Shown here piece after piece: positions 11,731 to 43,141 of a DNA stretch of 64,000 nt (position 1 is the stretch's first letter; the number at the start of each line of letters is the position of its first letter). The translations under genes and the position numbers were made by a program. The notes beneath the pieces were generated by a model. The model was not told the origin of the DNA. It ran no database searches and was given only the letters and a program-made list of their open reading frames with translations. The stretch covers positions 83,126-147,125 of the forward strand of contig CAYZWI010000003.1 in NCBI GenBank assembly GCA_964482205.1, read 5' to 3'. This stretch comes from an uncultured bacterium. Lineage in GTDB: Bacteria > Eisenbacteria > RBG-16-71-46 > CAIMUX01 > WJJG01.

Positions 11731-12690
11731 CTAGTAGCGCTCTTCGATGATCCTTGCCGGCATCGCGTCGCGCGCGATGCGCTCCTGCCCGAAAGCGCGC
11801 AGATCGCCCATGCGAGCGCGCAGCACGAGACGGGTCACATCCTCTTCGTCATCGCCGACGCGCACTTCGTTCGGGAAGAACGCGGCGATCACCACCCATT
11901 CATCATCCGCCAGTCGCGTCAGCGTGTCGCCGTAGTCCATCAGGAGGTCCATCAATTCCTGCCGGCCCTTCTCGAGCCGTTCGGCTTTGCGTTCCGCCGC
12001 CTCCGCCTGCTTTTCCTTCCACTCCGCGCCCCATTCTCCGTCGAATAGAGGCGCGCGCATCATCCGGACCTCGACATTCTTCTCGACCTCGTCTTCATCA
12101 TCATCTTCATCGTCATCATCATCGTCATCGCCGACCTCGTCGCGGTCCCGCACGCGGTACTCGTACCTCCGTTTGCCCCCACGATCGTCGTCTTCGTCGT
12201 CGCTTTCGTCTCCATCTTCGTCTTCGTCATCGTCATGCGTCTCTTTTCGAATCACCGTCACCGTGCCATCGTCATTCGTCTCCACGTGAATGTTACGCAA
12301 GCGCGAGCCGATGTCCGGGACGTCGGGCATGTCGGGCAGGTCCTGAATGATCAGATTGTCTCCAAAGAAGCGCAGTCCGCCGGTGGCGGAAGCTTCGAAG
12401 CTGAAGATCGCTCCATATCCCGGGAGATAGAGGCCGCGCACCGGATGGAGGCCGGCGACCATGAAGTTGTCGCTTTTGACGAGCACCTTGTCGATGATCG
12501 TCTCCATGACATCGACCTGGCGCTTCAACTTTTCCGGCATGGCCCCGCCGCCCGCAGGTTGGGCCCAAGCGACCGACACCCATGCCAGCATCCCCATTGT
12601 CGCAATCGCCCAGACGGACATCCGCCCGGCCGTCTTCCATGCATTTCGAGTCATGTTGCCTCCTCGCATCCGCATTTCCATGCCCATCAC
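11731..12690 (-). CDS. Secreted poly-acidic protein of unknown function (last gene of the ECF sigma operon)
   Basis: Signal-like segment MSVWAIATMGMLAWVSVAWAQ. There are two very long Asp/Glu runs (HDDDEDEDGDESDDEDDD and DDDDDDDEDDDEDE). The gene overlaps the anti-sigma stop by 4 nt. The true start may be an internal Met (MTRNAWK). Confidence 0.5.
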   Translation of the reverse strand: MMGMEMRMRGGNMTRNAWKTAGRMSVWAIATMGMLAWVSVAWAQPAGGGAMPEKLKRQVDVMETIIDKVLVKSDNFMVAGLHPVRGLYLPGYGAIFSFEASATGGLRFFGDNLIIQDLPDMPDVPDIGSRLRNIHVETNDDGTVTVIRKETHDDDEDEDGDESDDEDDDRGGKRRYEYRVRDRDEVGDDDDDDDEDDDEDEVEKNVEVRMMRAPLFDGEWGAEWKEKQAEAAERKAERLEKGRQELMDLLMDYGDTLTRLADDEWVVIAAFFPNEVRVGDDEEDVTRLVLRARMGDLRAFGQERIARDAMPARIIEERY

Positions 12691-13709
12691 CTCGTGGTGT
12701 CATCGCTCTCCCGTGGAGACGGGCCGAGCGTGTTTTCCTGTTGCGTCGATGGTCTTGTCAACGGCCGTTCCATCCCGCCGCTTCCAGTTGCCTGGTAGGC
12801 AGCCAGCTTGAGCAAGGCGTCCGCGAACTGCGCATTCATCTCGTCCTGATGACGCTTCTGGCGCGAATCGAGATCGTCGTAGATGCCGTTCAGCACATAG
12901 GCGAGCTCCGCTTCGCGGCGGCGGTCGTATTCGGTCAAGCCTTGCGCGATGAGCTGCACGAACTGGTTCGAGTACTCGGCGAATTCAGCGCGCGTCAGAT
13001 ACGGCCGCACCACATCTTGACCGGCGCGCGGTCCGCCCGGCTCACCGGCCGGTACACCGCCGTCCGCGCGCAGAGCATCACCGGCCGGCTCTCCCCGGGC
13101 GTCCGCGGGGGTCCTGCTCGGCTCGAGCGGGATCCCCTGCGAGTCTTGCTTGGCGTCATTCGTCTCCTCGAGCGGAATGTCCGCCAGCGGGCCGCGCGAA
13201 CCAGCCGCCGGCTCATCCGCGCGCGCCGCCGTTTCGTTCGACGGCCCAGTCGAGTTCGCGATGGAATCGTTCGATTCCATCTGCGTCTCTCCGAACCGCA
13301 CCACGAGCGCCCCGTTCTCGCGATCGATCCGCAATCCGGCCAGCATCAGGACGAGCAGTGCGGCGGCGCCCAAGGCGAAGCTCGCGATCGGCAGGCGCAG
13401 GGCGGCCCAGGATCCTGCCCTTCGCGTTTCGAATCGCCGTTCCTCTTCGCGCACTGTCACCCCGTGTGACTGCAGAGCACGATCGCTCGAGGAGTCGACC
13501 GGCAACAGGAACGAAAACGCGGGCGCCTTCTCCTCCACGCGCGACTCCTGCAAGAAGCCCCGCGCGGCCGTGAGCTCTTCCCACTCGGCTCGCAGCCCGG
13601 CGTCCGTGGCGAGCGCTTCATGAAACGCGCGCTCCTCCTCGGCGGACAATTCGCCGTAGAGGGCCGCGATCATTCGATCGCGACGAGGATCCAATGCATC
13701 GGCGGTCAT
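12687..13709 (-). CDS. Putative anti-sigma factor (single-pass membrane protein)
   Basis: The ORF follows the ECF sigma gene with a 4-nt overlap. It has an N-terminal cytoplasmic anti-sigma-like segment (DRMIAALYGELSAEEERAFHEALATDAGL), one TM helix (LPIASFALGAAALLVLMLAGL) and a Pro/Ala/Gly-rich periplasmic C-terminal region. Confidence 0.55.
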   Translation of the reverse strand: MTADALDPRRDRMIAALYGELSAEEERAFHEALATDAGLRAEWEELTAARGFLQESRVEEKAPAFSFLLPVDSSSDRALQSHGVTVREEERRFETRRAGSWAALRLPIASFALGAAALLVLMLAGLRIDRENGALVVRFGETQMESNDSIANSTGPSNETAARADEPAAGSRGPLADIPLEETNDAKQDSQGIPLEPSRTPADARGEPAGDALRADGGVPAGEPGGPRAGQDVVRPYLTRAEFAEYSNQFVQLIAQGLTEYDRRREAELAYVLNGIYDDLDSRQKRHQDEMNAQFADALLKLAAYQATGSGGMERPLTRPSTQQENTLGPSPRESDDTTR

Positions 13710-14299
13710 GCCCGCTCACCTCCTTTCATCCCCTTTCGACGATCCGAAGGGGCATTCTGTTCAGCGAGCATCTGATGAATGGCGCGCAGGCCGTAAAAAA
13801 TCCGGGTGCGGACGGTCGCGGCCGGCACGCCGGTGATTTCGGCGATCTCGTCGGATGTGAAGCCCTGGTACTCGCGCAGCAAGATCGCGGTGCGTTGCTC
13901 GAGAGAGAGCCGCTCGAGCAAGGCCTGGGCCGTCTGCCAGCGGATCACTTCTTCCTGCGCGGGAACGAGCGACATCTCCGACAGGCGCGCGCCTTCCGCG
14001 CCCTCTTCAAGATCGAGCGACTGGAAATGAGGACGCGCTTGCGCAGCGCGATGCCAGTCGCGGCAGAGATTGAGCGCGATGTGATGCAGCCAGGCGCGAA
14101 ATTTCTCCGGCTCGCGCAAGCGACGGATGTTCAGATAGGCCTTGAGGAGCGCTTCCTGGCAGACATCCTGCGCGTCCTCGCTGGTTCCCAGCATGCGGCG
14201 CACGAAGGGAAAGAGCCCGGCATGGGCCTTGCCCGCCAGCTCATTGAACGCGCGCAGGTCTCCCTGCTGGGAAAGAACCACGAGCTCGGTATCGGTCAT
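13706..14299 (-). CDS. ECF-type RNA polymerase sigma factor (sigma-70 family)
   Basis: Region 2 (FNELAGKAHAGLFPFVRRMLG...AQDVCQEALLKAYLNIRRL) and a region-4 HTH (FTSDEIAEITGVPAATVRTRIFYGLRAI) are present. The 197-aa length fits an ECF sigma. Confidence 0.85.
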   Translation of the reverse strand: MTDTELVVLSQQGDLRAFNELAGKAHAGLFPFVRRMLGTSEDAQDVCQEALLKAYLNIRRLREPEKFRAWLHHIALNLCRDWHRAAQARPHFQSLDLEEGAEGARLSEMSLVPAQEEVIRWQTAQALLERLSLEQRTAILLREYQGFTSDEIAEITGVPAATVRTRIFYGLRAIHQMLAEQNAPSDRRKGMKGGERA

Positions 14300-14340
14300 G
14301 AATACGCGCCGCCTCCCCAGCTTTCCTCGCTTCCCGATAG

Positions 14341-14369
14341 TAGACGCATCCGGGCGCCCAAATGTTCAA
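14341..14369 (-). promoter_or_regulatory. Putative ECF-type autoregulatory promoter upstream of the sigma gene
   Basis: The minus-strand sequence reads TGAACA-N17-CGTCTA (-35 AAC, -10 CGT). It lies about 45 bp upstream of the sigma start. Confidence 0.35.
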
Positions 14370-32657: not shown

Positions 32658-33446
32658 CTAGCCGATCCTGGTCGACTGCTCGGAGTCCGGACTGAAAGCG
32701 CGCTCGGGCACTCGTCTTCCTGTGGCGTCATTCAATGCATCCAGCAACGGCAACACTTCCCGCAAGTCTCGCAGCTCGTGATCGGCCGACTCGTCGCGAT
32801 CGAAGATGTACCCGTCCGGCTGCCCGTTGTCGAGAAGCGCGGTCACCATCCCCGCGCGCGCCGCTCCCGCCATCTCACGCCCGTGTCCGTCGCCCACATA
32901 CAGGCACGCGGCCGGCTCCACCTGCAAGCGGGCGATCATCTGCGCGTAGATGCGCGCGTCCGGCTTGGCCGCTCCCACCTCCGACGAAAACAGCGCCACT
33001 TGAAAGTGCCGCGCGAGCGGACCGGCGCGAAAGACCGCGGGCACATCCGGGTTGCAGTTCGAGATCAGGCCGAGAGGATATCCGCGTGTTGCGATCTCAC
33101 GCAGAACTTCTTCGCTTTCAGGCTTGGGCCGAAGCGTCGCGCGCAAGAGCTCACGAAAGGGAACGAGGCCGCGGGTGATCTCGTCGTCTTCTGTGCGCAC
33201 CTGCAAGCGCGCGCAGATCACGCGGACGTTGTCTTCGAGCGTCGCCAGGCGCCCGTCGTTGCGTTCGCGATAGGTGGCGTCCCATTCGGCGCGGAAGGCC
33301 GCTTCCGGGATCCCGAGCGCGGCGGAGAGCGAGGCCAGCGTTCCGTAGTAATCGGTCAAACGCGACACGGGGACGAGCGTGCCGAAGAGATCGAACACGC
33401 AAGCGCGGATGGCGGTCGCCCGGCGCGGCTCATCGAGTGGATGCAT
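32658..33446 (-). CDS. HAD-superfamily hydrolase
   Basis: HAD motif I reads VFDLFGTLV and motif IV reads YVGDGH. The product is 262 aa. Confidence 0.7.
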   Translation of the reverse strand: MHPLDEPRRATAIRACVFDLFGTLVPVSRLTDYYGTLASLSAALGIPEAAFRAEWDATYRERNDGRLATLEDNVRVICARLQVRTEDDEITRGLVPFRELLRATLRPKPESEEVLREIATRGYPLGLISNCNPDVPAVFRAGPLARHFQVALFSSEVGAAKPDARIYAQMIARLQVEPAACLYVGDGHGREMAGAARAGMVTALLDNGQPDGYIFDRDESADHELRDLREVLPLLDALNDATGRRVPERAFSPDSEQSTRIG

Positions 33447-33575
33447 CCTTGCGCTGCCCTTCCCCGCATGGCCCTGATGCGCGTTGCCTTCTGCAAGCGC
33501 CCTCTGCGCGCGCCTGCAGCGAGCGGCTCTTCTACTCGCAGCTCGCGCGATCCTTGCGCGCGCAGCCCTTACCGA

Positions 33576-35231
33576 TCAGCTCTTCTCCCATCCCGGCCGC
33601 GCTCCCGACTCGTGCACCCACACATCCTTGTTCTCGCCGTAGTCGATCGGGCAATCGATGAGCACCGGCCGGTTCTGTTGAAACGCCTCTTCCAGGGCAG
33701 GTCGTAGCTGATCCTCCGCGGTGATGCAATAGCCGATCGTGCCGTAGGCCTCCGCGTACTTGCAGAAGACGGGGTTGTGCAAATCCAGGCCGAAGTCGGG
33801 GAATCCGTGGCTCTGCTGTTCCCACTTGATGAACCCGTAGGCGTTGTCGTTCAGGATGAGGACCACGACGGCGATTCCCAAACGCACCGCGGTCTCGAGC
33901 TCCTGGGAGTTCATCAGGAATCCGCCGTCTCCCACGACGGCGAGCACGCGGCGATCGGGACGCACGAGCTTCGCCGCCATCGCGAGCGGCATGCCGGCCC
34001 CCATCGTCGCGAGGCTGTTGTCGAGAATGAAGGTGCCGATGTCGTAGACCGGGTAATGGCGCGAGAACCACAGCTTGTAGATCCCGTTGTCGAGGCAGAG
34101 CACATCTTCCCGCCCCAACGCGCGCCGGCATTCGGCCACGATCCTTCGCGGGCGCAGCGGGAAGGCGGTGTCATCGGCGCCTTCGACGTGCAGGCGCCGC
34201 TCGAACTCCCGGCGCAAGCGCGCGAGCGTGTCGCCCGCGTAGCGGTAATTCGCCAGCCGTTCGCCCAAGCGGTCGAGGGTGGTCGCGATGTCGCCGATCA
34301 GCTCGATGCGTGGGTTGTAATGCGCCTGGGTCTTCCCCACGCTGAAGTCGATGCGCAGAATCGGCTTGTCCATGCGCGGGTTCCACAAGCGCGGCGGATA
34401 CTCGTTCGTCGAATAGCCCACGGTGATGATCAGATCGACGCCTTCCACGATCGCGCTCAGATGATCGTGCCGGTGGACGCCGAAGGAGAAGAGCGAGTTG
34501 GGATGGTCGTCTCCCAGCGCGCCTTTCCCGAGTTGCGTGTGAATGACGAAGACGTTCGTCGCATCGCAGAAGCGCCGCAGGCTCTCGTGCACGCGCCGCC
34601 GCTGTCCGCGGCTCGAGACGATCAGGATCGGATCGCGAGCGCGGCGGATCATCTCCGCCGCAGCGTCGATCGCGCTCGCCTCCGCCACCGGGCGGCGAAT
34701 CCATCCGGGATCGAGCGGCCGGAACTCCGCCGGAACCGATTCGTTGGCGATGTCCTCGGGCAGCTCGATGTGGCAGGCGCCCAGGCGCTCGGTGGTCGCG
34801 ACCTTGAAGGCTTCGCGCACTTCGGTCGGGATCATCTTTGGATCCTGGATCTGGATCGTGCGCTTCGTGATCGGACGCATGAGGCTCACGATGTCGAGCA
34901 ATTGGAAATCGGCCTGCCAGTTCTCGCGAATCCCCTTCTGGCCGGTGATTGCGAGCAGCGGAACGCCGGAGAGCTGCGCGTGCGCGATCCCCGTCACGAG
35001 ATTCGTCGCGCCGGGGCCGAGCGTGGCCAGGCACACGCCCGTCTTTCCGGTCATGCGCGCGTACCCTGCGGCCATGAACGCCGCCGCCTGCTCATGGCGA
35101 TTCACGATCAAGCGGATCGACGAGGTGCGCAGGCTTTCGAGCAGATCCAGGTTCTCTTCACCGGGAACGCAGAAGACATACTCGGTCCCTTCCCGTTCGA
35201 GGCAACGAACAAACAGATCGGATGCCTTCAT
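33576..35231 (-). CDS. Thiamine-pyrophosphate-dependent enzyme (acetolactate synthase large-subunit-like)
   Basis: The N-terminus MKASDLFVRCLEREGTEYVFCVPGEENL matches the family. The TPP-binding motif is GDGGFLMNSQELETA. The listed 648-aa ORF carries an Arg-rich extension. The start is the Met encoded at 35231-35229. Confidence 0.8.
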   Translation of the reverse strand: MKASDLFVRCLEREGTEYVFCVPGEENLDLLESLRTSSIRLIVNRHEQAAAFMAAGYARMTGKTGVCLATLGPGATNLVTGIAHAQLSGVPLLAITGQKGIRENWQADFQLLDIVSLMRPITKRTIQIQDPKMIPTEVREAFKVATTERLGACHIELPEDIANESVPAEFRPLDPGWIRRPVAEASAIDAAAEMIRRARDPILIVSSRGQRRRVHESLRRFCDATNVFVIHTQLGKGALGDDHPNSLFSFGVHRHDHLSAIVEGVDLIITVGYSTNEYPPRLWNPRMDKPILRIDFSVGKTQAHYNPRIELIGDIATTLDRLGERLANYRYAGDTLARLRREFERRLHVEGADDTAFPLRPRRIVAECRRALGREDVLCLDNGIYKLWFSRHYPVYDIGTFILDNSLATMGAGMPLAMAAKLVRPDRRVLAVVGDGGFLMNSQELETAVRLGIAVVVLILNDNAYGFIKWEQQSHGFPDFGLDLHNPVFCKYAEAYGTIGYCITAEDQLRPALEEAFQQNRPVLIDCPIDYGENKDVWVHESGARPGWEKS

Positions 35232-35241
35232 CCCTCCCCCG

Positions 35242-36888
35242 TCATTTCCGCGCGCGCGAGACGCCCGCCCCGCGGCCGCCGCGCTGAGACCTGGTTTTCT
35301 TGCTGGGCGCTTTCTTGCCGACGGTCCTCTTGGCCGGCGTTCTTGTGGGGCTTGGTTTACCCTTGCTTGACCGCTTCGCGATCGATGTCGTCGTGCGCTT
35401 CGTAGGTGCCTTCGATGCACGCTTCGCGGGCGCTTTCGTCGCGGGCGGCACAGCGCGCTTCCCCGTTCCCGTCGCCGCACGCTTCCTGGCCGCTCTCGTG
35501 GCCGGCACGTGCTGTTCCCCATGCGCGTGAATGCTGATGCCCTTCACATTCACGAATTCGCGCAATCCGAAATGCGAGAGCTCTCGCCCGAAGCCGCTTT
35601 GCTTCACGCCGCCAAAGGGCATGCGCGGGTCGGACTTGACGACGCTGTTCACGAAGGTCGTGCCCGCCTCGAGCCTGCGCAGCAGGCGTTCGCCGCGGCG
35701 AAGATCCGGCGTCCAGACGCTGGCACCCAATCCGAAGGGGCTCGCGTTCGCGATTCGCACGGCATCGTCGTCATCTCTCGCGGCGATCACCGGAGCGATT
35801 GGGCCGAAGACCTCTTCGAGCACGACCGGCATTTGCGCATTCGCATTCGCGACGACCGTGGGCGCGAAGTAGAATCCCGGCCGCTCGAGCCGCTGCCCTC
35901 CGGTGACGACGCGCGCGCCCATGCTCACGGATTGCTCCATTTGCCGGGTGAGTTGAGCGACCGCATCTTCATCGACGAGCGGCCCCACTTCCGTGCTTTC
36001 CTCTTGCGGATCTCCGACGACGAGCGCTTCCATCCCCGCCGCAAATCGTTCGGTGAAGGCTTCGACGAGCGGTTCAGCCACGATGAAGCGCTTGGCGGCG
36101 ATGCAGCTCTGCCCCGTGTTGATCATCCTTCCCGCGACCGCCTGACGCGCCGCGAATTCCACATCGGCGTCGTCGAGCACGATGAAGGCGTCCGATCCGC
36201 CCAGTTCGAGCACGACCTTCTTCAACGCCCGGCCCGCGGTCTCGGCAATGCGCGCACCCGCTTCGGTGCTGCCGGTCAGGGAGACGCCCTGGATCCATTC
36301 GCCTTCGAACAACCCGCTCACCGTCTTGTGATCGGTGAAGATCGCTCGAAAGATGTTGGGAGGAAACCCCGCCTCGCGAAACGCGCGCTCGATGGCGAGC
36401 GCGCATTGAGGCACATTGCGCGCGTGCTTGAGGAGGCTCGCGTTGCCGGCGAGCACCGCGGGAACACCAAAGCGCAACGCCTGCCAAAAGGGAAAATTCC
36501 AGGGCATGATCGAGAGGATCACGCCCAACGGCTCGAAGACCACGCGGTTCTCGATCCCGCCCGCATCCACCGTTTCCTCGGCGAGCCAATCGGGACCGTA
36601 TTCCGCGTAGATCTCGGCCAGCCACGCGCACTTCTCGATTTCCGCACGCGATTGCGCGATCGGTTTTCCCATCTCGGTGGTGATGTGGCGGGCATTCGTC
36701 TCGAGACTGTCGCGCAACACCGCCGCGAGGCGGAAGAAGAGCCCGGCGCGCTCGGTCACATCGACATCGCGCCATTCGGTATAGGCCTCACGCGCCTGCC
36801 GGGCGATGGCGCGCACATCCTCGCGGCAGGAAGTCTCATATCCGCCGGCCGCTTCGCCGGTGGCCGGATTGACGAGCTCGATTCTCAT
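35242..36888 (-). CDS. NAD(P)+ aldehyde dehydrogenase (succinate-semialdehyde-DH-like) with about 90-aa Lys/Ala/Pro-rich histone-H1-like C-terminal tail
   Basis: ALDH motifs VVLELGGSDAF, catalytic Cys in GQSCIAAKR, and EEVFGPIAP. The tail is in frame with no intervening stop: KRAATGTGKRAVPPATKAPAKRASKAPTKRTTTSIAKRSSKGKPSPTRTPAKRTVGKKAPSKKTRSQRGG. The start MRIELVNP lies inside the listed ORF. Confidence 0.8.
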   Translation of the reverse strand: MRIELVNPATGEAAGGYETSCREDVRAIARQAREAYTEWRDVDVTERAGLFFRLAAVLRDSLETNARHITTEMGKPIAQSRAEIEKCAWLAEIYAEYGPDWLAEETVDAGGIENRVVFEPLGVILSIMPWNFPFWQALRFGVPAVLAGNASLLKHARNVPQCALAIERAFREAGFPPNIFRAIFTDHKTVSGLFEGEWIQGVSLTGSTEAGARIAETAGRALKKVVLELGGSDAFIVLDDADVEFAARQAVAGRMINTGQSCIAAKRFIVAEPLVEAFTERFAAGMEALVVGDPQEESTEVGPLVDEDAVAQLTRQMEQSVSMGARVVTGGQRLERPGFYFAPTVVANANAQMPVVLEEVFGPIAPVIAARDDDDAVRIANASPFGLGASVWTPDLRRGERLLRRLEAGTTFVNSVVKSDPRMPFGGVKQSGFGRELSHFGLREFVNVKGISIHAHGEQHVPATRAARKRAATGTGKRAVPPATKAPAKRASKAPTKRTTTSIAKRSSKGKPSPTRTPAKRTVGKKAPSKKTRSQRGGRGAGVSRARK

Positions 36889-37166
36889 CGTTCCTCCAAT
36901 GGTGATGCCTCCTGATCGTCCCGGCTCGAACGGCGGGGTTCCAACCGGCGGCCGCAGGAATGCAGAGATCACTGTCGCGACGATGCCAAGGTCAATCGCG
37001 CTTCTCGCGGCGACCGGATGGTGGGGAGAACGGCAAGAGGCCGTTCATCCGGCTGCCCCGACATGGGAAGCGAGAACCGCGCTCGCGCGCCTCTCGCCGC
37101 CCTGGAGAATACCCGAGCGACGCGCCCGCAGCAAGGTCGCGTCCTGCCGCCAGGATCGCGTCACGA

Positions 37167-37295
37167 GCGTGCTATAGCAGACCGCATGCCCAGCTCCCCG
37201 GCGCACGGTGCCTGCTATAGCAAACGCAAGGCCCAGCTTTCGCGTGCCTATGGCCTGCTATAGCAGGCCGCATGCCCAGCATTCGCTCTGCACCG
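37167..37295. repeat. Three tandem 43-bp direct repeats, each containing the perfect palindrome TGCTATAGCA
   Basis: The palindrome sits at 37170-37179, 37213-37222 and 37256-37265, exactly 43 bp apart. Each is followed by the conserved string [AG][AG][AC]CGCA[TA]G[CG]CCAGC. The array lies in the 680-bp divergent intergenic region between the ALDH gene (-) and the DUF2029 gene (+). Confidence 0.6.
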
Positions 37296-37401
37296 CCCTG
37301 CAACCGCGCCGCGGCGGCCCGCATGGTGTCATAGGGATGTAAGCGAAGCGCGGCCGCGGAAGTCTCCAGGCCTCTCTTGGCCCTGACGGCGCTGAGCGTA
37401 C

Positions 37402-37449
37402 AAGGCGCGCGCCCCCTGCGTGAACTCTCTCTGAGCGCGCGCCGGTCCC
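37402..37449. repeat. REP-like palindromic extragenic element (copy 2)
   Basis: aaGGCGCGCGCCccctgcgtgaactctctctgaGCGCGCGCCggtccc is about 90% identical to 11575-11622. Confidence 0.5.
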
Positions 37450-37571
37450 GAGACACCATGCGGGCCACGCGGCGCGAGGTTCCACAGGCCTCGCAGGGCT
37501 ATGCAAGCGTTGGGGCGGGATGCTGCGACAAAGCGCTTGCGAACCGGAGTCGCTCGCGTAGGCTGCACGGC

Positions 37572-39152
37572 ATGTCGCCCTTCGATGCGGACAAGCGCGC
37601 GCAGTTCGCGTTCATCGCGGCCCTGGCGCTCCATGCGCTCTTTCTCGTCTCGCTCGCGACGGGATTTCTGAATCCGCTGTTCGTGGAGGCGAGCCAAGGG
37701 TACGGGCAGGCGTCGGACTTCCACGGCATCTATCAGGCGGGCGCGAATCTCGCTCACGGCTACAGCATCTACGACTCGCCCGATTATCTTCACGAGGCGC
37801 CGCAGGTCGTGCCCTCGTACTATTTCTATCGCTATCTTCCGCCGACCGCGTACGGTTCGGCGCTGCTTTCGCTCGCCCTTCCGCCTCGTCCCGCATACTG
37901 GGCCTGGGTGCTCATCAACGAAGCGCTGGTCGCCCTCGTGGTCGTCTCGCTTCTTCGGGACACGCGCTGGCAAGCGTGGAGGCGCTACCTCGTCGCCGCA
38001 TTGTGGGTCGGGTTCTTTCCCCTGTATGTCGAGCAGTTCATGGGCCAGTTCTCGCTCACCATGGCCGTGCTGCTCTGGTTTCTTTGGCGCGCGGAGGCCA
38101 ACCATCCCGCGCACGGTTCCACTCGCCAAGCTCGCGCCGATTCTTGCATCCCTGACCTCCCGGAAGCGGGCCGTGACTCCACGGATGCAACGCGCGCGCG
38201 CATGACTGTCGGTCCCGCACGCCGGCCATGGAGCGAAGTCTGGCAGGCGCTGTGGATGCGCTGGTCGAGTTATCGCTGGCGCGCGGATACCGTGCGGCCG
38301 TGGCGCATTCCGATCGCCTGGGCGGCCAGCATCACGCTGAAGAGCTTCTCCGCGCTCCTTGCCATTCCCTATCTTCGCGATGGGCGCTGGAAGCGCATAC
38401 TCGCGGGCGCGGCGCTCACCATCGCCGCGAGCCTTCCCTACTTTCTCGCGCGGCCCAAGGACCTGGGCGAATTCGTGCGCTTGAATCTGACTCCGTTCAC
38501 GCGCGGGATCTACAAAGGCTCCTTCGGACTTCAGACCTTCCTGCGCGACTTGCTCACGCATCTTCCGAACGATTGGGAAGCGGTCAGGATCGTGATTGGA
38601 GGAGGCGATATTCGCGTGGGAAGCGCGATCCTGCTCTTCGTCTCGATCGTCATCGTGCTGCTCGCGCTGCTCGCTTCCCTTCGCATGGCGACGCCGCCCG
38701 GATACGCACATTCCGCGAGATCTGCGTCGCTTTCCACGAATGGGCCCGACGCGGCCGACGATCGCAAAGGCCGCCGCGCAGGCAACGGCTCGAGCGCAAT
38801 GCGCTCGGCCATCGACCTCGCCCTCTGGGTGACGGTGTTCTTTCTCGTCTTCAAGACCGTCTGGGAATACCACTACCTGATGATGCTGCCGGTCCTGAGC
38901 GCGCTCATTCTCCTCACCGGTTCGCGCACGCTCATCGTCCTGGCCGTTCTCATCGGCATGCCGACGATCTTCGTCCTCGGTCCGGTTATCACGGGAGCCG
39001 CGCGAGATGCGTCCATCGGCGCCTGGCCGGGGTGGTTTCGCGCCTGGCATTTCAGCGTGAAGTGCGTGCCGGCAGTGGTGTTCTTCGGTTGGTGCCTGCG
39101 CGCGGCGTGGCGATACGGAGATGCTGCCAGGTTGAGTCGCGTCAGCGATTGA
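37572..39152 (+). CDS. DUF2029 / GT87-family polytopic membrane glycosyltransferase-like protein
   Basis: The family N-terminal motif is SDFHGIYQAGANLAHGYSIYD (D-F..Y..A.....G.nPY). About 10 TM helices. The start MSPFDADKRAQF at 37572 avoids translating the upstream REP-like element that the listed ORF (37377) includes. Confidence 0.65.
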   Translation: MSPFDADKRAQFAFIAALALHALFLVSLATGFLNPLFVEASQGYGQASDFHGIYQAGANLAHGYSIYDSPDYLHEAPQVVPSYYFYRYLPPTAYGSALLSLALPPRPAYWAWVLINEALVALVVVSLLRDTRWQAWRRYLVAALWVGFFPLYVEQFMGQFSLTMAVLLWFLWRAEANHPAHGSTRQARADSCIPDLPEAGRDSTDATRARMTVGPARRPWSEVWQALWMRWSSYRWRADTVRPWRIPIAWAASITLKSFSALLAIPYLRDGRWKRILAGAALTIAASLPYFLARPKDLGEFVRLNLTPFTRGIYKGSFGLQTFLRDLLTHLPNDWEAVRIVIGGGDIRVGSAILLFVSIVIVLLALLASLRMATPPGYAHSARSASLSTNGPDAADDRKGRRAGNGSSAMRSAIDLALWVTVFFLVFKTVWEYHYLMMLPVLSALILLTGSRTLIVLAVLIGMPTIFVLGPVITGAARDASIGAWPGWFRAWHFSVKCVPAVVFFGWCLRAAWRYGDAARLSRVSD

Positions 39153-40827: not shown

Positions 40828-41619
40828 TCAACCTGCGCTCTTGGCCGCTGCCTTGCGCCCGCGATCGACGCACTCGCGCGAACGGCACGACCCGCAGAAC
40901 GGAAACTCGGCCGCGAAGGAGTGGATTTCGGGCCTCCCGAGCACGATCGCGCCCGAAATCGACTTGAGCGGACTCATGAGACAACTCTCTCCGAGTCGAA
41001 TGCCGATCGCTTCGGGCCCCAATTCGGCGAAGAGCGCCCGCTGGCCGGTCACATCCCAGCCGCAATAGCCGGGACTGTATCGCATCGCGCACAAACGCCC
41101 CGCCGATTCATCGGCGCGCGATCCGTCGCGCTTCTCGCACGGTGCAAGAAACCGCGCTTCCCACCGCTCTTCCAGAGTTTCCGCCGCACGCTCGGCCGCT
41201 TCCGACGCGGCCGCATCGAGAACCGCAGCAAGGGCGAATTCGCGCGCTTGAAATAACTCTGCGATCTTCCGCTCGACCTCCGCCCCAATCGTGACGGCGA
41301 AGATCGCGAGCCGTTCGGCCTTCGGGAAGATGCCGGCTAAGGGGCCTTCCGGCGCATTCTTCCCTTCGCCCTGATAGATGAACGCGAACCGTTCGGGGCT
41401 CACATCCTTCCACACGCCCACCGGCTCTGCACACTCCCGTACAACATCGAGCGCGCGAGAGAGCAGTTCCGATGTCCGCGCGCCCTGGTGGGCACCCGAG
41501 TCCGCCTCCGCGGCTCCCGGCAACCCGAGCGCGCAGCGCACGCGCTCGACATCGGGCACGATCTCTTCCGCGGACATGCGCACGATCTCGCCCATCGCGA
41601 TTGGCCTCACGCTTCGCAT
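40828..41619 (-). CDS. Methionine-synthase activation (AdoMet-dependent reactivation) domain-like protein
   Basis: MRYSPGYCGWDVTGQRALFAELGPEAIGIRLGESCLMSPLKSISGAIV matches the Met_synt_B12 pattern (R.SPGY...LTES..M.P.aSvSG). The C-terminal segment is FPFCGSCRSRECVD. Confidence 0.6.
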   Translation of the reverse strand: MRSVRPIAMGEIVRMSAEEIVPDVERVRCALGLPGAAEADSGAHQGARTSELLSRALDVVRECAEPVGVWKDVSPERFAFIYQGEGKNAPEGPLAGIFPKAERLAIFAVTIGAEVERKIAELFQAREFALAAVLDAAASEAAERAAETLEERWEARFLAPCEKRDGSRADESAGRLCAMRYSPGYCGWDVTGQRALFAELGPEAIGIRLGESCLMSPLKSISGAIVLGRPEIHSFAAEFPFCGSCRSRECVDRGRKAAAKSAG

Positions 41620-41674
41620 CCGCTCTGCGGCATCGCGACTCCGCTTCGAATCCGTTCCGTGGCCGCGACTGCCC

Positions 41675-43141
41675 TCACGCTTCCAATCCGCTCTTGGGCA
41701 GCGCGTCCATCCCGAATTTGCGCGCCTCCTTTTGCATGAGCCGCGTGAGCTCGGTCTTCGCCTCCTTGGACAATCTCGAAGGCTGCGCCGCCGCCACCAA
41801 CCGCTCGACTTCGCGATGCGCGCGCTCTCCCAAAGTGAGGCCGCCCTCTTCCATCCAGCGGGCGCGATTGGCGCGATCGATCGCGGGGCCGGGGATGTAG
41901 TGCTCGTCGCGCAAGTGACGCCGCGTGTGCTTGGAGATGAGCAAGTGGCCTTCGCGCAGCAATTCCTCGAAGCGCTCCAGCGAAGGGAAATCCTCGCGTG
42001 GCGCGATGCCTTCCGCCAACCGGCCGGCGAGGCCGCAGATCTCGTTGTCGACCACGAGCTTTTCGAGACTCTGGCAGCTCTCGAAGTCGAGCATGCCCGG
42101 CCCCGAGACGCTGTTCACCCCCGAGAGCATCGCAAGCGTCGCGCCCATCGAAGTCTCGAGCCCCGCCTGCGCGTCGAGCTGCTTGGCGTCGCTCAGTCCG
42201 ATGTAGGCCTGCGTCGGCATCCCGAGATGCTTGCCGATCTCGCTGTAGGCGCAATCGATCATCTGCGTCTCGACCGCGCCCATCGGAGTCGTCTCGTAGC
42301 GCACATCGAAGATCGCGGGCGATCCGCCGTAGAGCACCGGAGCGCCCGGGCGGGCGAGCTGGGTGAGGACCACTCCGCTCAGCGTCTCGGCGGTGTGCTG
42401 AATGAGCGAGCCCACCAAGGTGACCGGCCCCATGAAGCCGGCCAGCGGCATCGAGACATATTCCACCGGCACGCCGTCGCGCGCGCAGTCGAGCAGGTTC
42501 TGCGAAGTCACTTCGCTCCACTTGAGCGGCGCGGTGGGACAGACGGAGAAGATCGTGAGCGGTTTCGCGCGCAGCTCCTCGGCCGATCCGCGCACCGCGA
42601 TCTGCAGGTCGCGCATGAGCTCGTACGAAGGAATCGTGAAGGCCCCGGTCACGACCGGCTTCTCGCCGTGCAGCAGGCTCAAGTACAGCCGGTAGCTGTC
42701 CTGGATGCCGGCCGGAACATCGGCCGCGATCATCGCCGTGCTCTGCGAAGCGATGTGCTTCAACCCCGCGACGAGCTTCGTGTAGCGCACATAATCGGCG
42801 GTTTCGGGCCGGCGCATCGCGCCCGAGGGATAGTCGAGGATGTGAATGGCCGCCGAGCCGGGAGTGAAATAGACACGGTCGTCGATGAAGTCGTGGGTCT
42901 CGTTTCCCAGAACATCGTAGAGCTTGAACGACCGGGGCACCCGTCGCAGCGCCTCGTCGATCATCGCCTGCGTCAAACGCACGCGGCCGTCGGCGTGGCC
43001 GACTTGCGCGCCGTTGTCGGCGAGCAGCCGGACGGCGCGATCGTTGTGGACCTCGAGGCCCAGCCGGCAGAGGAGATCCCGCCCTTCGGTCACGATGCGT
43101 TCCAGCAACGGGTCGTCGAGGAATCTGAGCCGTGGTCTCAC
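41675..43141 (-). CDS. MttB-superfamily methyltransferase (non-pyrrolysine trimethylamine-methyltransferase homolog; quaternary-amine:corrinoid methyltransferase-like)
   Basis: 488 aa. The N-terminus LDDPLLERIVTEGRDLLCRLGLEVHNDRAVRLLADNGAQV fits the MttB TIM-barrel family pattern. There is no in-frame stop, which is consistent with non-Pyl members. Confidence 0.7.
   Translation of the reverse strand: MRPRLRFLDDPLLERIVTEGRDLLCRLGLEVHNDRAVRLLADNGAQVGHADGRVRLTQAMIDEALRRVPRSFKLYDVLGNETHDFIDDRVYFTPGSAAIHILDYPSGAMRRPETADYVRYTKLVAGLKHIASQSTAMIAADVPAGIQDSYRLYLSLLHGEKPVVTGAFTIPSYELMRDLQIAVRGSAEELRAKPLTIFSVCPTAPLKWSEVTSQNLLDCARDGVPVEYVSMPLAGFMGPVTLVGSLIQHTAETLSGVVLTQLARPGAPVLYGGSPAIFDVRYETTPMGAVETQMIDCAYSEIGKHLGMPTQAYIGLSDAKQLDAQAGLETSMGATLAMLSGVNSVSGPGMLDFESCQSLEKLVVDNEICGLAGRLAEGIAPREDFPSLERFEELLREGHLLISKHTRRHLRDEHYIPGPAIDRANRARWMEEGGLTLGERAHREVERLVAAAQPSRLSKEAKTELTRLMQKEARKFGMDALPKSGLEA

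Follow-up and report, generated by a model that had tools for sequence, protein, structure and literature searches.

A 64-kb stretch of DNA from an uncultured bacterium of the Eisenbacteria, here called the window, contains an intergenic region of 683 bp (36889-37571) from which two genes diverge: an aldehyde dehydrogenase (ALDH) gene with a lysine-rich tail on the minus strand and a gene for a GT87/DUF2029 membrane protein on the plus strand. Between them lies an array of three tandem 43-bp units, each built around the perfect 10-bp palindrome TGCTATAGCA, and beside the array lies a long imperfect hairpin. A first-pass annotation had described the palindromes as cooperative operator sites for a dimeric transcription factor, with a small structured RNA as the alternative. 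Here, we report a computational analysis of the array and put forward a different reading, to which we give a probability of about 0.45: that the units are three tandem sigma-54 (RpoN)-type -24/-12 elements which drive the ALDH operon or dock polymerase for it. The array is real and non-random, and on this reading it would be unusual in that three sigma-54-type elements follow each other in tandem and their -12 region is palindromic. To our knowledge, the Eisenbacteria are a phylum without a cultured member. The features of the locus are as follows.

32658-36888, minus strand: putative target operon, encoding the ALDH, an acetolactate-synthase-like thiamine diphosphate (ThDP) enzyme and a HAD hydrolase (gene calls and Pfam)
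35242-36888, minus strand: ALDH gene, succinate-semialdehyde-dehydrogenase-like, with a Lys-rich tail; heads the operon
37106-37134, minus strand: sigma-70-type promoter of the ALDH operon; -35 TTGCTG at 37134-37129, -10 TATTCT at 37111-37106, predicted start ~37099
37167-37194, minus strand: unit 1, GCTGGGCATGCGGTC-TGCTATAGCA-CGC; exact match to the viral pattern GGCAYG-N5-TGCTATAGCA
37210-37237, minus strand: unit 2, GCTGGGCCTTGCGTT-TGCTATAGCA-GGC
37253-37280, minus strand: unit 3, GCTGGGCATGCGGCC-TGCTATAGCA-GGC
37281-37330, minus strand: possible degenerate fourth unit, CCTGCAACCGCG...GGCCCGCATGG, entering the left hairpin arm; weak evidence
37305-37476, no strand: long imperfect hairpin; its core is the perfect 15-bp inverted repeat GGCCCGCATGGTGTC (37316-37330) / GACACCATGCGGGCC (37452-37466)
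37537-37574, plus strand: promoter of the GT87/DUF2029 gene, TTGCGA-N16-TAGGCT-N7-ATG, leaderless-type, from alignment; the layout is also found in the relatives L010 and L132
37572-39152, plus strand: GT87/DUF2029 membrane protein gene

Anatomy of the array

The palindrome starts at 37170, 37213 and 37256 and ends at 37179, 37222 and 37265, a spacing of exactly 43 bp, and its dyad symmetry is perfect in all three units. These positions, and the divergent setting between the ALDH and DUF2029 genes, had been given by the first-pass annotation and hold in the sequence; Tandem Repeats Finder independently returns a period of 43 with 3.0 copies at 37157-37286. With up to one mismatch allowed, TGCTATAGCA has just these three matches in the window, against 0.26 expected. 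No further copy occurs in 81 kb of the same contig, a scope obtained by extending the window along JAEAME010000018.1 (GCA_016294925.1), and a scan of contigs from other genomes, which did not include the source metagenome-assembled genome, returned two chance matches in unrelated genomes.

The repeat search delimits a conserved block of 28 nt in each unit (37167-37194, 37210-37237 and 37253-37280), with identities of 79-93% between units. The block is one-sided: it comprises the palindrome and 15 nt on its right and closes in an invariant GCCCAGC, which begins, in register, 8 nt past the palindrome. The left-hand 15-nt stretches cannot be aligned to each other. Conservation is therefore not symmetric about the dyad, as the block extends to the right only, while the sequences on the left differ between units and evolve fast. 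The box CGCA[T/A]G[C/G]CCAGC, which had been described as following every palindrome, is present as such in units 1 and 3, whereas unit 2 departs from it by one base (CGCAAGGCCCAGC). Read on the minus strand, the conserved block is GCTGGGCATGCGGyC-TGCTATAGCA, in which GCTGGGC and TGCTATAGCA are invariant among units and the 8 nt between them vary. Unit 3 in the window lies within a longer perfect palindrome of 18 bp, GGCCTGCTATAGCAGGCC.

A second Tandem Repeats Finder row (37156-37301, 3.4 copies) and the alignment of the next 43 nt are the basis for the possible fourth unit. The array is a tandem triplication of a 43-bp unit, possibly with a fourth, decayed copy. An independent Logan contig carries the identical array; since the 43/43 spacing also recurs in the assemblies of a second strain (below), the array is not an assembly artefact.

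Match to sigma-54 promoters

The sigma-54 consensus is mrNrYTGGCACG-N4-TTGCWNNw, and that of Geobacter is TTGGCACGGTTTTTGCT (quoted in PMC2725144). On the minus strand, all three units contain GG and GC separated by exactly 10 nt, the spacing of sigma-54 promoters, in a single register and facing the ALDH operon. Numbered accordingly, the elements would lie as follows.

Unit 1: GG (-25/-24) at 37190/37189; GC (-13/-12) at 37178/37177; predicted start ~37165
Unit 2: GG at 37233/37232; GC at 37221/37220; predicted start ~37208
Unit 3: GG at 37276/37275; GC at 37264/37263; predicted start ~37251

In this numbering, the box that the first-pass annotation placed downstream of the palindrome would be the reverse complement of the -24 element, and the palindrome would contain the -12 element (TGCT) together with an AT-rich melting region. 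Units 1 and 3 each differ by one mismatch from TGGCAYG-N4-YTGCW, and they are two of only four such matches in 128 kb (the window, both strands). Unit 2 has a weaker -24 box (GGGCCT) and a better -12 box (TTTGCT). An independent weight matrix, for which 90 RpoN promoters predicted in Geobacter were used (PMC2725144, Additional file 3), gives units 1, 2 and 3 scores of 9.7, 9.3 and 8.4 bits, which rank 10th, 18th and 31st of 161,496 positions in the 81 kb, a moderate standing. The plus-strand readings of the same units score -6.7, 2.3 and 1.0 bits, so that a mirrored second half is lacking; the best of them comes from the left flank of unit 2, GCGCACGGTGCC, a weak plus-strand mirror half that is lost in the second strain. 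We estimate the chance of a sigma-54-grade match in an arbitrary conserved unit of 28 nt at ~0.5%, a figure to be discounted because several other motif types had been tried first.

Several other readings were rejected. A sigma-54 site on the plus strand finds a weak match in unit 2 only, which is not kept in the second-strain contig L008. As a sigma-70 or extended -10 element, TGCTATAGC yielded no site in a consensus scan, and its hexamer TATAGC does not end in the T that is found in the two conserved promoters of the locus (TANNNT). Leaderless mini-open reading frames (ORFs) from the ATG that lies 7 nt past TATAGC in units 1 and 3 were considered as well; in the 25-codon ORF, all five L008 differences are non-synonymous. 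Substitutions in a minus-strand ORF of 98 codons show no third-position bias (5/17). A literature search for the TGCTATAGCA palindrome or for sigma-54 in Eisenbacteria found no relevant description.

Conservation in a second strain and in relatives

A second strain of ~95% protein identity, represented by contigs L008 and L009 from two other assemblies, retains all three palindromes at the 43/43 spacing. None of the 30 palindrome positions has changed, compared with 3 of 84 in the 28-nt cores and 5 of 55 in the spacers, where four of the five changes cluster just left of unit 2. At four-fold degenerate sites of eight flanking genes, ~10% of positions differ (158/1581). A single change distinguishes unit 3 in L008: at 37266 it creates TTGCT, which raises the matrix score from 8.4 to 12.25 bits and at the same time breaks the 18-bp palindrome.

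Relatives of 55-70% protein identity (L010, L011 and L132) keep the divergent ALDH/GT87 pair without it, and among 15 orthologous metagenome loci the ALDH-GT87 pairing occurs only in L132, again with no array. The two -35 boxes are 402 bp apart in the window and 73 to ~205 bp apart in the relatives, which indicates that array and hairpin together make up an insert of roughly 200-330 bp that is specific to this lineage. No part of it recurs elsewhere in the 81 kb, and a comparison of the insert with annotated phages gave no match. Other Eisenbacteria carry different small repeats at this locus: three 13-nt GSTGGAACTCRSY units upstream of the GT87 gene (L011:3899-3940), and a unit of ~50 nt, present twice, in the ALDH leader (GGCCGGATTGCC.G.GGACTCGCC; L132:2118-2195).

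The hairpin lies upstream of the units in the minus-strand sense. Its arms are unchanged in L008, where differences at 37308/37309 break the extended stem without compensation. RNA folds of the 401-nt region 37140-37540, which spans array and hairpin, have z-scores of -4.7 and -5.2. The hairpin may be a binding region for an enhancer-binding (activator) protein, a remnant resembling a miniature inverted-repeat transposable element (MITE), or nothing at all. Logan contigs from three sequencing runs stop at 37418 or begin at 37445, inside the hairpin, and the second-strain differences at 37416, 37419, 37420 and 37433 cluster near the same interval; contig ends and clustered differences together suggest strain mixtures or a repeat-induced assembly break at 37418-37445.

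A symmetric site in phage contigs

Scanning viral contigs for pairs of the palindrome returned mostly tandem repeats within coding sequence, whose periods are divisible by three and which are irrelevant here. However, two GC-rich phage contigs, L013 and L025, carry TGGCACG-N4-(T/C)TGCTATAGCA, in agreement with YTGGCACG-N4-TTGCW. The pattern GGCAYG-N5-TGCTATAGCA occurs in 88 viral contigs with GC contents of 0.32-0.61, whereas spacers of N4 and N6 give one and 11 contigs, respectively. Units 1 and 3 of the array match this pattern exactly, and unit 2 has GGCCTT in place of GGCAYG. The viral loci with the site are L013, L025 and L046-L123 (for example, L073:1828-1859 and L049:9154-9185).

Positions that had not been used in the selection also follow the sigma-54 consensus. 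Among 87 non-redundant phage half-sites, T precedes GGCA in 85% and a pyrimidine stands one base further up in 74%; a purine follows GGCAYG in 74% and T precedes TGC in 54%. The far side of the palindrome, likewise unselected, mirrors the near side (T90 G82 C89 C91 A76, in per cent), so that the complete phage site is a 34-bp two-fold symmetric sequence, TGGCAYG-N5-TGCTATAGCA-N5-CRTGCCA. Because the N4 spacers are not complementary, this symmetry points to protein binding and not to a hairpin.

The sites are intergenic in ~49% of cases, against ~19% of random positions, by crude ORF calls. Two unrelated phage groups have the site 200-800 nt upstream of the genes for the small and large terminase subunits (terS-terL), and in 10 of the 37 loci represented by a whole contig it lies within 500 nt of a contig end. 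L025 carries terminase and portal genes and is a genuine phage fragment; at L025:210-690 it has three clusters of three units with a period of 39 bp, and in each cluster two palindromic units precede a plain TTGGCACG-N4-TTGCTGCCCGG unit. L013:1010-1200 carries three to four units with a period of 49 bp, and its array is adjoined by a GATC cluster and tgtacgaaaccgtaca repeats, which are origin-like features. No Rfam family overlaps the phage sites, and the phage arrays match none of the annotated phages. As the site-bearing phage groups have no cultured relatives closer than ~30% terminase identity, no host was assigned. On another of the viral contigs, a Pistol ribozyme (Rfam RF02679, 61.7 bits) was recorded at L081:8485-8552 on the minus strand.

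We know of hardly any description of sigma-54 control of phage genes or of symmetric sigma-54 promoters, and a literature search for symmetric sigma-54 phage promoters or for such sites found none. Tentatively, and as something we consider somewhat unlikely, the TGCTATAGCA core could mark an apparently undescribed regulatory class, in which two mirrored sigma-54-type -24/-12 elements share one palindromic -12 region; the class would be widespread in uncultured phages, and the array would be its chromosomal, one-sided and triplicated derivative. The phage sites might serve as compact sigma-54 promoters that fire in both directions, or as docking sites for sigma-54; a role in packaging or late control, or some other one, is also conceivable. 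If the phage class is read in this way, the chromosomal array would have been inserted, together with the hairpin element, upstream of an older sigma-70 promoter. A strictly spaced, symmetric, sigma-54-like phage site may outweigh the array itself in interest.

Proposed mechanism

Under the sigma-54 reading, each unit would present the element GCTGGGC(A/C)-N7-(T/C)TGCT-ATAGCA on the minus strand, and all three would be aimed at the operon for the ALDH, the acetolactate-synthase-like enzyme and the HAD hydrolase. The array would have been added 70-190 bp upstream of the ancestral sigma-70-type promoter of this operon. Sigma-54 RNA polymerase would dock at one unit or at several, form a closed complex there and fire only upon the action of an ATP-dependent enhancer-binding protein, which would probably sit on the hairpin-rich DNA just upstream (37296-37480). 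The outcome would be a signal-dependent route of expression added to the sigma-70 promoter, with transcripts from ~37165, 37208 and 37251. In phages, the palindrome would be common to two mirror-image sigma-54-like halves, of which the array keeps one. The sequences show the anatomy of the units, their spacing, their common strand, their retention in a second strain and, for units 1 and 3, membership of a motif class from phage contigs whose every feature tracks the sigma-54 consensus; we infer sigma-54 as the binding protein, initiation at the units, the existence of an activator and the ALDH operon as the target.

If this is true, an operon in an uncultured phylum has gained signal-dependent sigma-54 control through the insertion of a ready-made triple promoter cassette, and the locus would be a concrete case of regulatory wiring being acquired. 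Otherwise, the array is no more than an ordinary cluster of repeats or operators, specific to its lineage and of purely local interest.

Nevertheless, there are several points that weigh against the sigma-54 reading. The first is the quality of the match. When up to two mismatches are allowed, the window holds no excess of matches (27, with 31 expected), from which it follows that looser sigma-54 matches are common in GC-rich DNA. The matrix scores of the units lie below the training median of 15.3 bits (training range 5.6-21.5 bits), three better-scoring chance matches sit in coding DNA, and all units have G instead of T at -26. Moreover, the match was noticed after other motif types and is hence partly post hoc. 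The second point is the palindrome. Recognition by sigma-54 leaves a perfect 10-bp palindrome (positions -10 to -5) in all copies unexplained; in the phages the palindrome is accounted for by the presence of the mirrored half, but that half is gone in the Eisenbacteria array. The third is the position of the array, since the operon already owns a conserved sigma-70 promoter and the array lies where upstream activator sites would sit. The fourth is that the expected partners were not encountered: 81 kb of the genome and 205 kb from relatives (~286 kb) contain neither rpoN or an RpoN box nor a GAFTGA motif or a Pfam Sigma54_activat domain (PF00158), which at typical gene densities counts as only mildly negative. 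Inverted repeats do lie 40-220 bp upstream of the units, and none is tied to an activator. Finally, the statistics of conservation are weak, the apparent constraint on the unit cores (p ~0.03-0.04) coming from two lineages only.

Alternative explanations

A serious rival, although we consider it unlikely, is an operator or upstream-activating array, in which a dimeric transcription factor encoded elsewhere would bind the 10-bp palindromes cooperatively and repress or activate the ALDH promoter or the divergent pair. Such a factor would explain why the dyad is perfect in three units of both strains (0/30 changes), that is, why the full palindrome is better conserved than sigma-54 recognition alone requires. 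Relative to the sigma-70-type promoter of the ALDH operon, the units are centred ~76, 119 and 162 bp upstream, in a zone typical of activators, and their regular spacing would permit cooperative binding. On the other hand, the flanks are asymmetric, with the conserved block reaching 15 nt to one side while the other side evolves fastest, and unit 3 of L008 has no intact 18-bp palindrome. A binding site confined to the dyad leaves the GCCCAGC box and its fixed distance unexplained, as it does the sigma-54-like flanks found at one exact spacing in 88 phage contigs. In agreement with the first-pass annotation, which saw no regulator gene in the flanks, Pfam finds no DNA-binding regulator within ~20 kb on either side of the array, and the palindrome is not reused elsewhere in the 81 kb.

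The helical-phase argument that had been offered for operators adds little to this. The period of 43 bp corresponds to ~4.1 turns, close to the four turns that had been claimed to place all copies on the same face, but exact periodicity follows from tandem duplication without insertions or deletions, and presentation on the same face is not conserved in the class, given phage periods of 39 and 49 bp (~3.7 and 4.7 turns). What stands of the cooperative-operator proposal is that the units are phased, repeated and probably protein-binding regulatory sites; its dimeric operators fit poorly with the asymmetric conservation, the sigma-54 spacing and the flanks of the phage sites. A dimeric factor that binds the 10-bp core is, in short, favoured less by the anatomy.

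Of low probability is an unknown symmetric factor other than sigma-54, for which the full site would be the 34-bp phage palindrome and the chromosomal units half-decayed copies, perhaps derived from a phage or mobile element. Nearly all phage sites have two-fold symmetry, which is the hallmark of dimeric binding, and in the two unrelated phage groups they lie upstream of terS-terL, where packaging and late-control sites occur; the array and hairpin, for their part, form a lineage-specific insert. This reading, however, needs a coincidence, as each half of the site reproduces the sigma-54 consensus, including its unselected positions and its spacing. The wide range of GC contents (0.32-0.61) and the unrelated terminases argue for a universal host factor rather than for a phage-specific protein, the non-complementary N4 spacers imply no hairpin, and no phage genes lie beside the array in the window.

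The array could also have no function of its own, having arisen by neutral tandem duplication or within a MITE-like insert and lying between two promoters by chance, which we likewise regard as improbable. It is absent from the orthologous regions of the relatives of 55-70% identity (L010, L011 and L132), some of which bear other small tandem repeats at the locus, and the Logan assemblies break within the adjoining hairpin. Relative to the second strain, the array differs at 5.8% of positions and the whole intergenic region at 5.6%, so that the array as a whole shows no special conservation. Yet the units have diverged from each other (79% core identity, with spacers that cannot be aligned) while the palindrome and GCCCAGC remain invariant in three copies and two strains. 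Neutrality would further require the sigma-54-grade match to have arisen by the chance of ~0.5% estimated above, and parts of the insert have no other copy in the 81 kb.

Lower still in probability is an element acting as RNA, within a long 5' leader or as a small RNA, in which the palindromes would pair in alternative hairpins (1:2 or 2:3) and so form a switch. Folds of 37150-37300 have z-scores of -3.3 and -3.7, in line with those of the wider region 37140-37540 (-4.7 and -5.2), and the right side of unit 1 is 80% complementary to the left side of unit 2 over 20 nt. The z-scores of the array are nevertheless explained by the palindromes pairing with each other, and the structure scores do not differ between the strands, which is what any inverted repeat would give. 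Four L008 substitutions fall in the proposed stem and lower its complementarity from 16/20 to 15/20, none of them compensatory. Rfam yields no match at the gathering score and none beyond two chance ones at E values up to 10, no terminator is present, and the short ORFs that start from ATGs in the units gather non-synonymous changes only. The structured RNA suggested in the first-pass annotation thus finds no backing in Rfam or in the substitutions; the search for tRNA, tmRNA and Rfam families likewise found none.

The F-plasmid partition site sopC consists of 43-bp repeats, each with a palindrome, and the array shares with it the formal likeness of tandem 43-bp units with a dyad, just as its layout of a 28-nt repeat and a 15-nt 'spacer' resembles a CRISPR array; a partition site, an iteron array or a degenerate CRISPR-like array is nonetheless very improbable and effectively refuted by context, as the setting is one of chromosomal housekeeping genes with no parA/parB, rep or cas genes in the 81 kb, there is neither an AT-rich unwinding element nor a GC-skew shift, and a CRISPR array would have longer spacers than these 15 nt and less divergent repeats.

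Flanking genes and promoters

The distance from the units down to the ALDH start codon (36888) is 277-363 nt, and they share the minus-strand orientation of the gene. The ThDP enzyme of the operon matches NCBIfam PRK08322 (716 bits), and its HAD hydrolase is of the haloacid dehalogenase type. The ALDH promoter belongs to a family with the consensus CTTGCCG-N17-TATGCT, in which CTTGC and TAT.CT are invariant across an alignment of five lineages (55-95% protein identity). The ALDH and GT87/DUF2029 promoters, both conserved across Eisenbacteria lineages, could help to define the promoter rules of an uncultured phylum.

The C-terminal tail of the ALDH, ~100 residues long (35242-35541 of the window, minus strand), is rich in Lys, Ala and Pro and resembles a histone H1 tail. 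Its rate of evolution is ~4 times that of the catalytic core (at the first and second codon positions, 9.6% compared with 2-3%), the length of the protein varies with it (548 versus 567 residues), and it is absent from the orthologues of 55-70% identity, which are ~457 residues long.

Elsewhere in the window, the sole transcription-related gene that was found encodes an extracytoplasmic function (ECF)-type sigma factor (13706-14365, minus strand), 23 kb away from the array; the two ORFs that come after it (12687-13715 and 11731-12699) match no Pfam family. A second tandem repeat at 41596-41693, with a period of ~32-35 and 2.8 copies, fills the gap between genes for an MTTB-family methyltransferase and Met_synt_B12 and belongs to a minus-strand corrinoid methyltransferase operon.

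Comparison with known systems

The array resembles several known systems, from each of which it can be distinguished. As in phased operator arrays, its dyads are perfect, regularly spaced and situated in a divergent promoter region; unlike in these, its conserved flank is asymmetric, no regulator gene is nearby and the motif occurs at no other promoter in the 81 kb.

With sigma-54 (RpoN) promoters the units share a bipartite structure in which GG and GC are invariant and separated by exactly 10 nt, a -12 box TGCT followed by an AT-rich stretch, and a location upstream of a catabolic-type operon in the orientation of that operon. The differences are the three tandem copies at 43 bp, the G for T at -26, the extension of the -12 region to a perfect 10-bp palindrome and the placement of the units upstream of an existing sigma-70-type promoter.

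Symmetry-driven bidirectional promoters are of the sigma-70 type and consist of two promoters with a common symmetric -10 region. The phage site is comparable in that its two mirrored halves share a central element, with predicted starts ~19 bp apart and directed outward. It would, however, belong to another sigma class, and the units of the window are unidirectional.

The palindromic sites of phages are like the array in their core and in the distance of this core to GGCAYG, and L025 and L013 also hold arrays of three units. Nevertheless, the phage sites are two-fold symmetric and usually single, whereas each chromosomal unit keeps one half, and all of the units keep it on the same strand.

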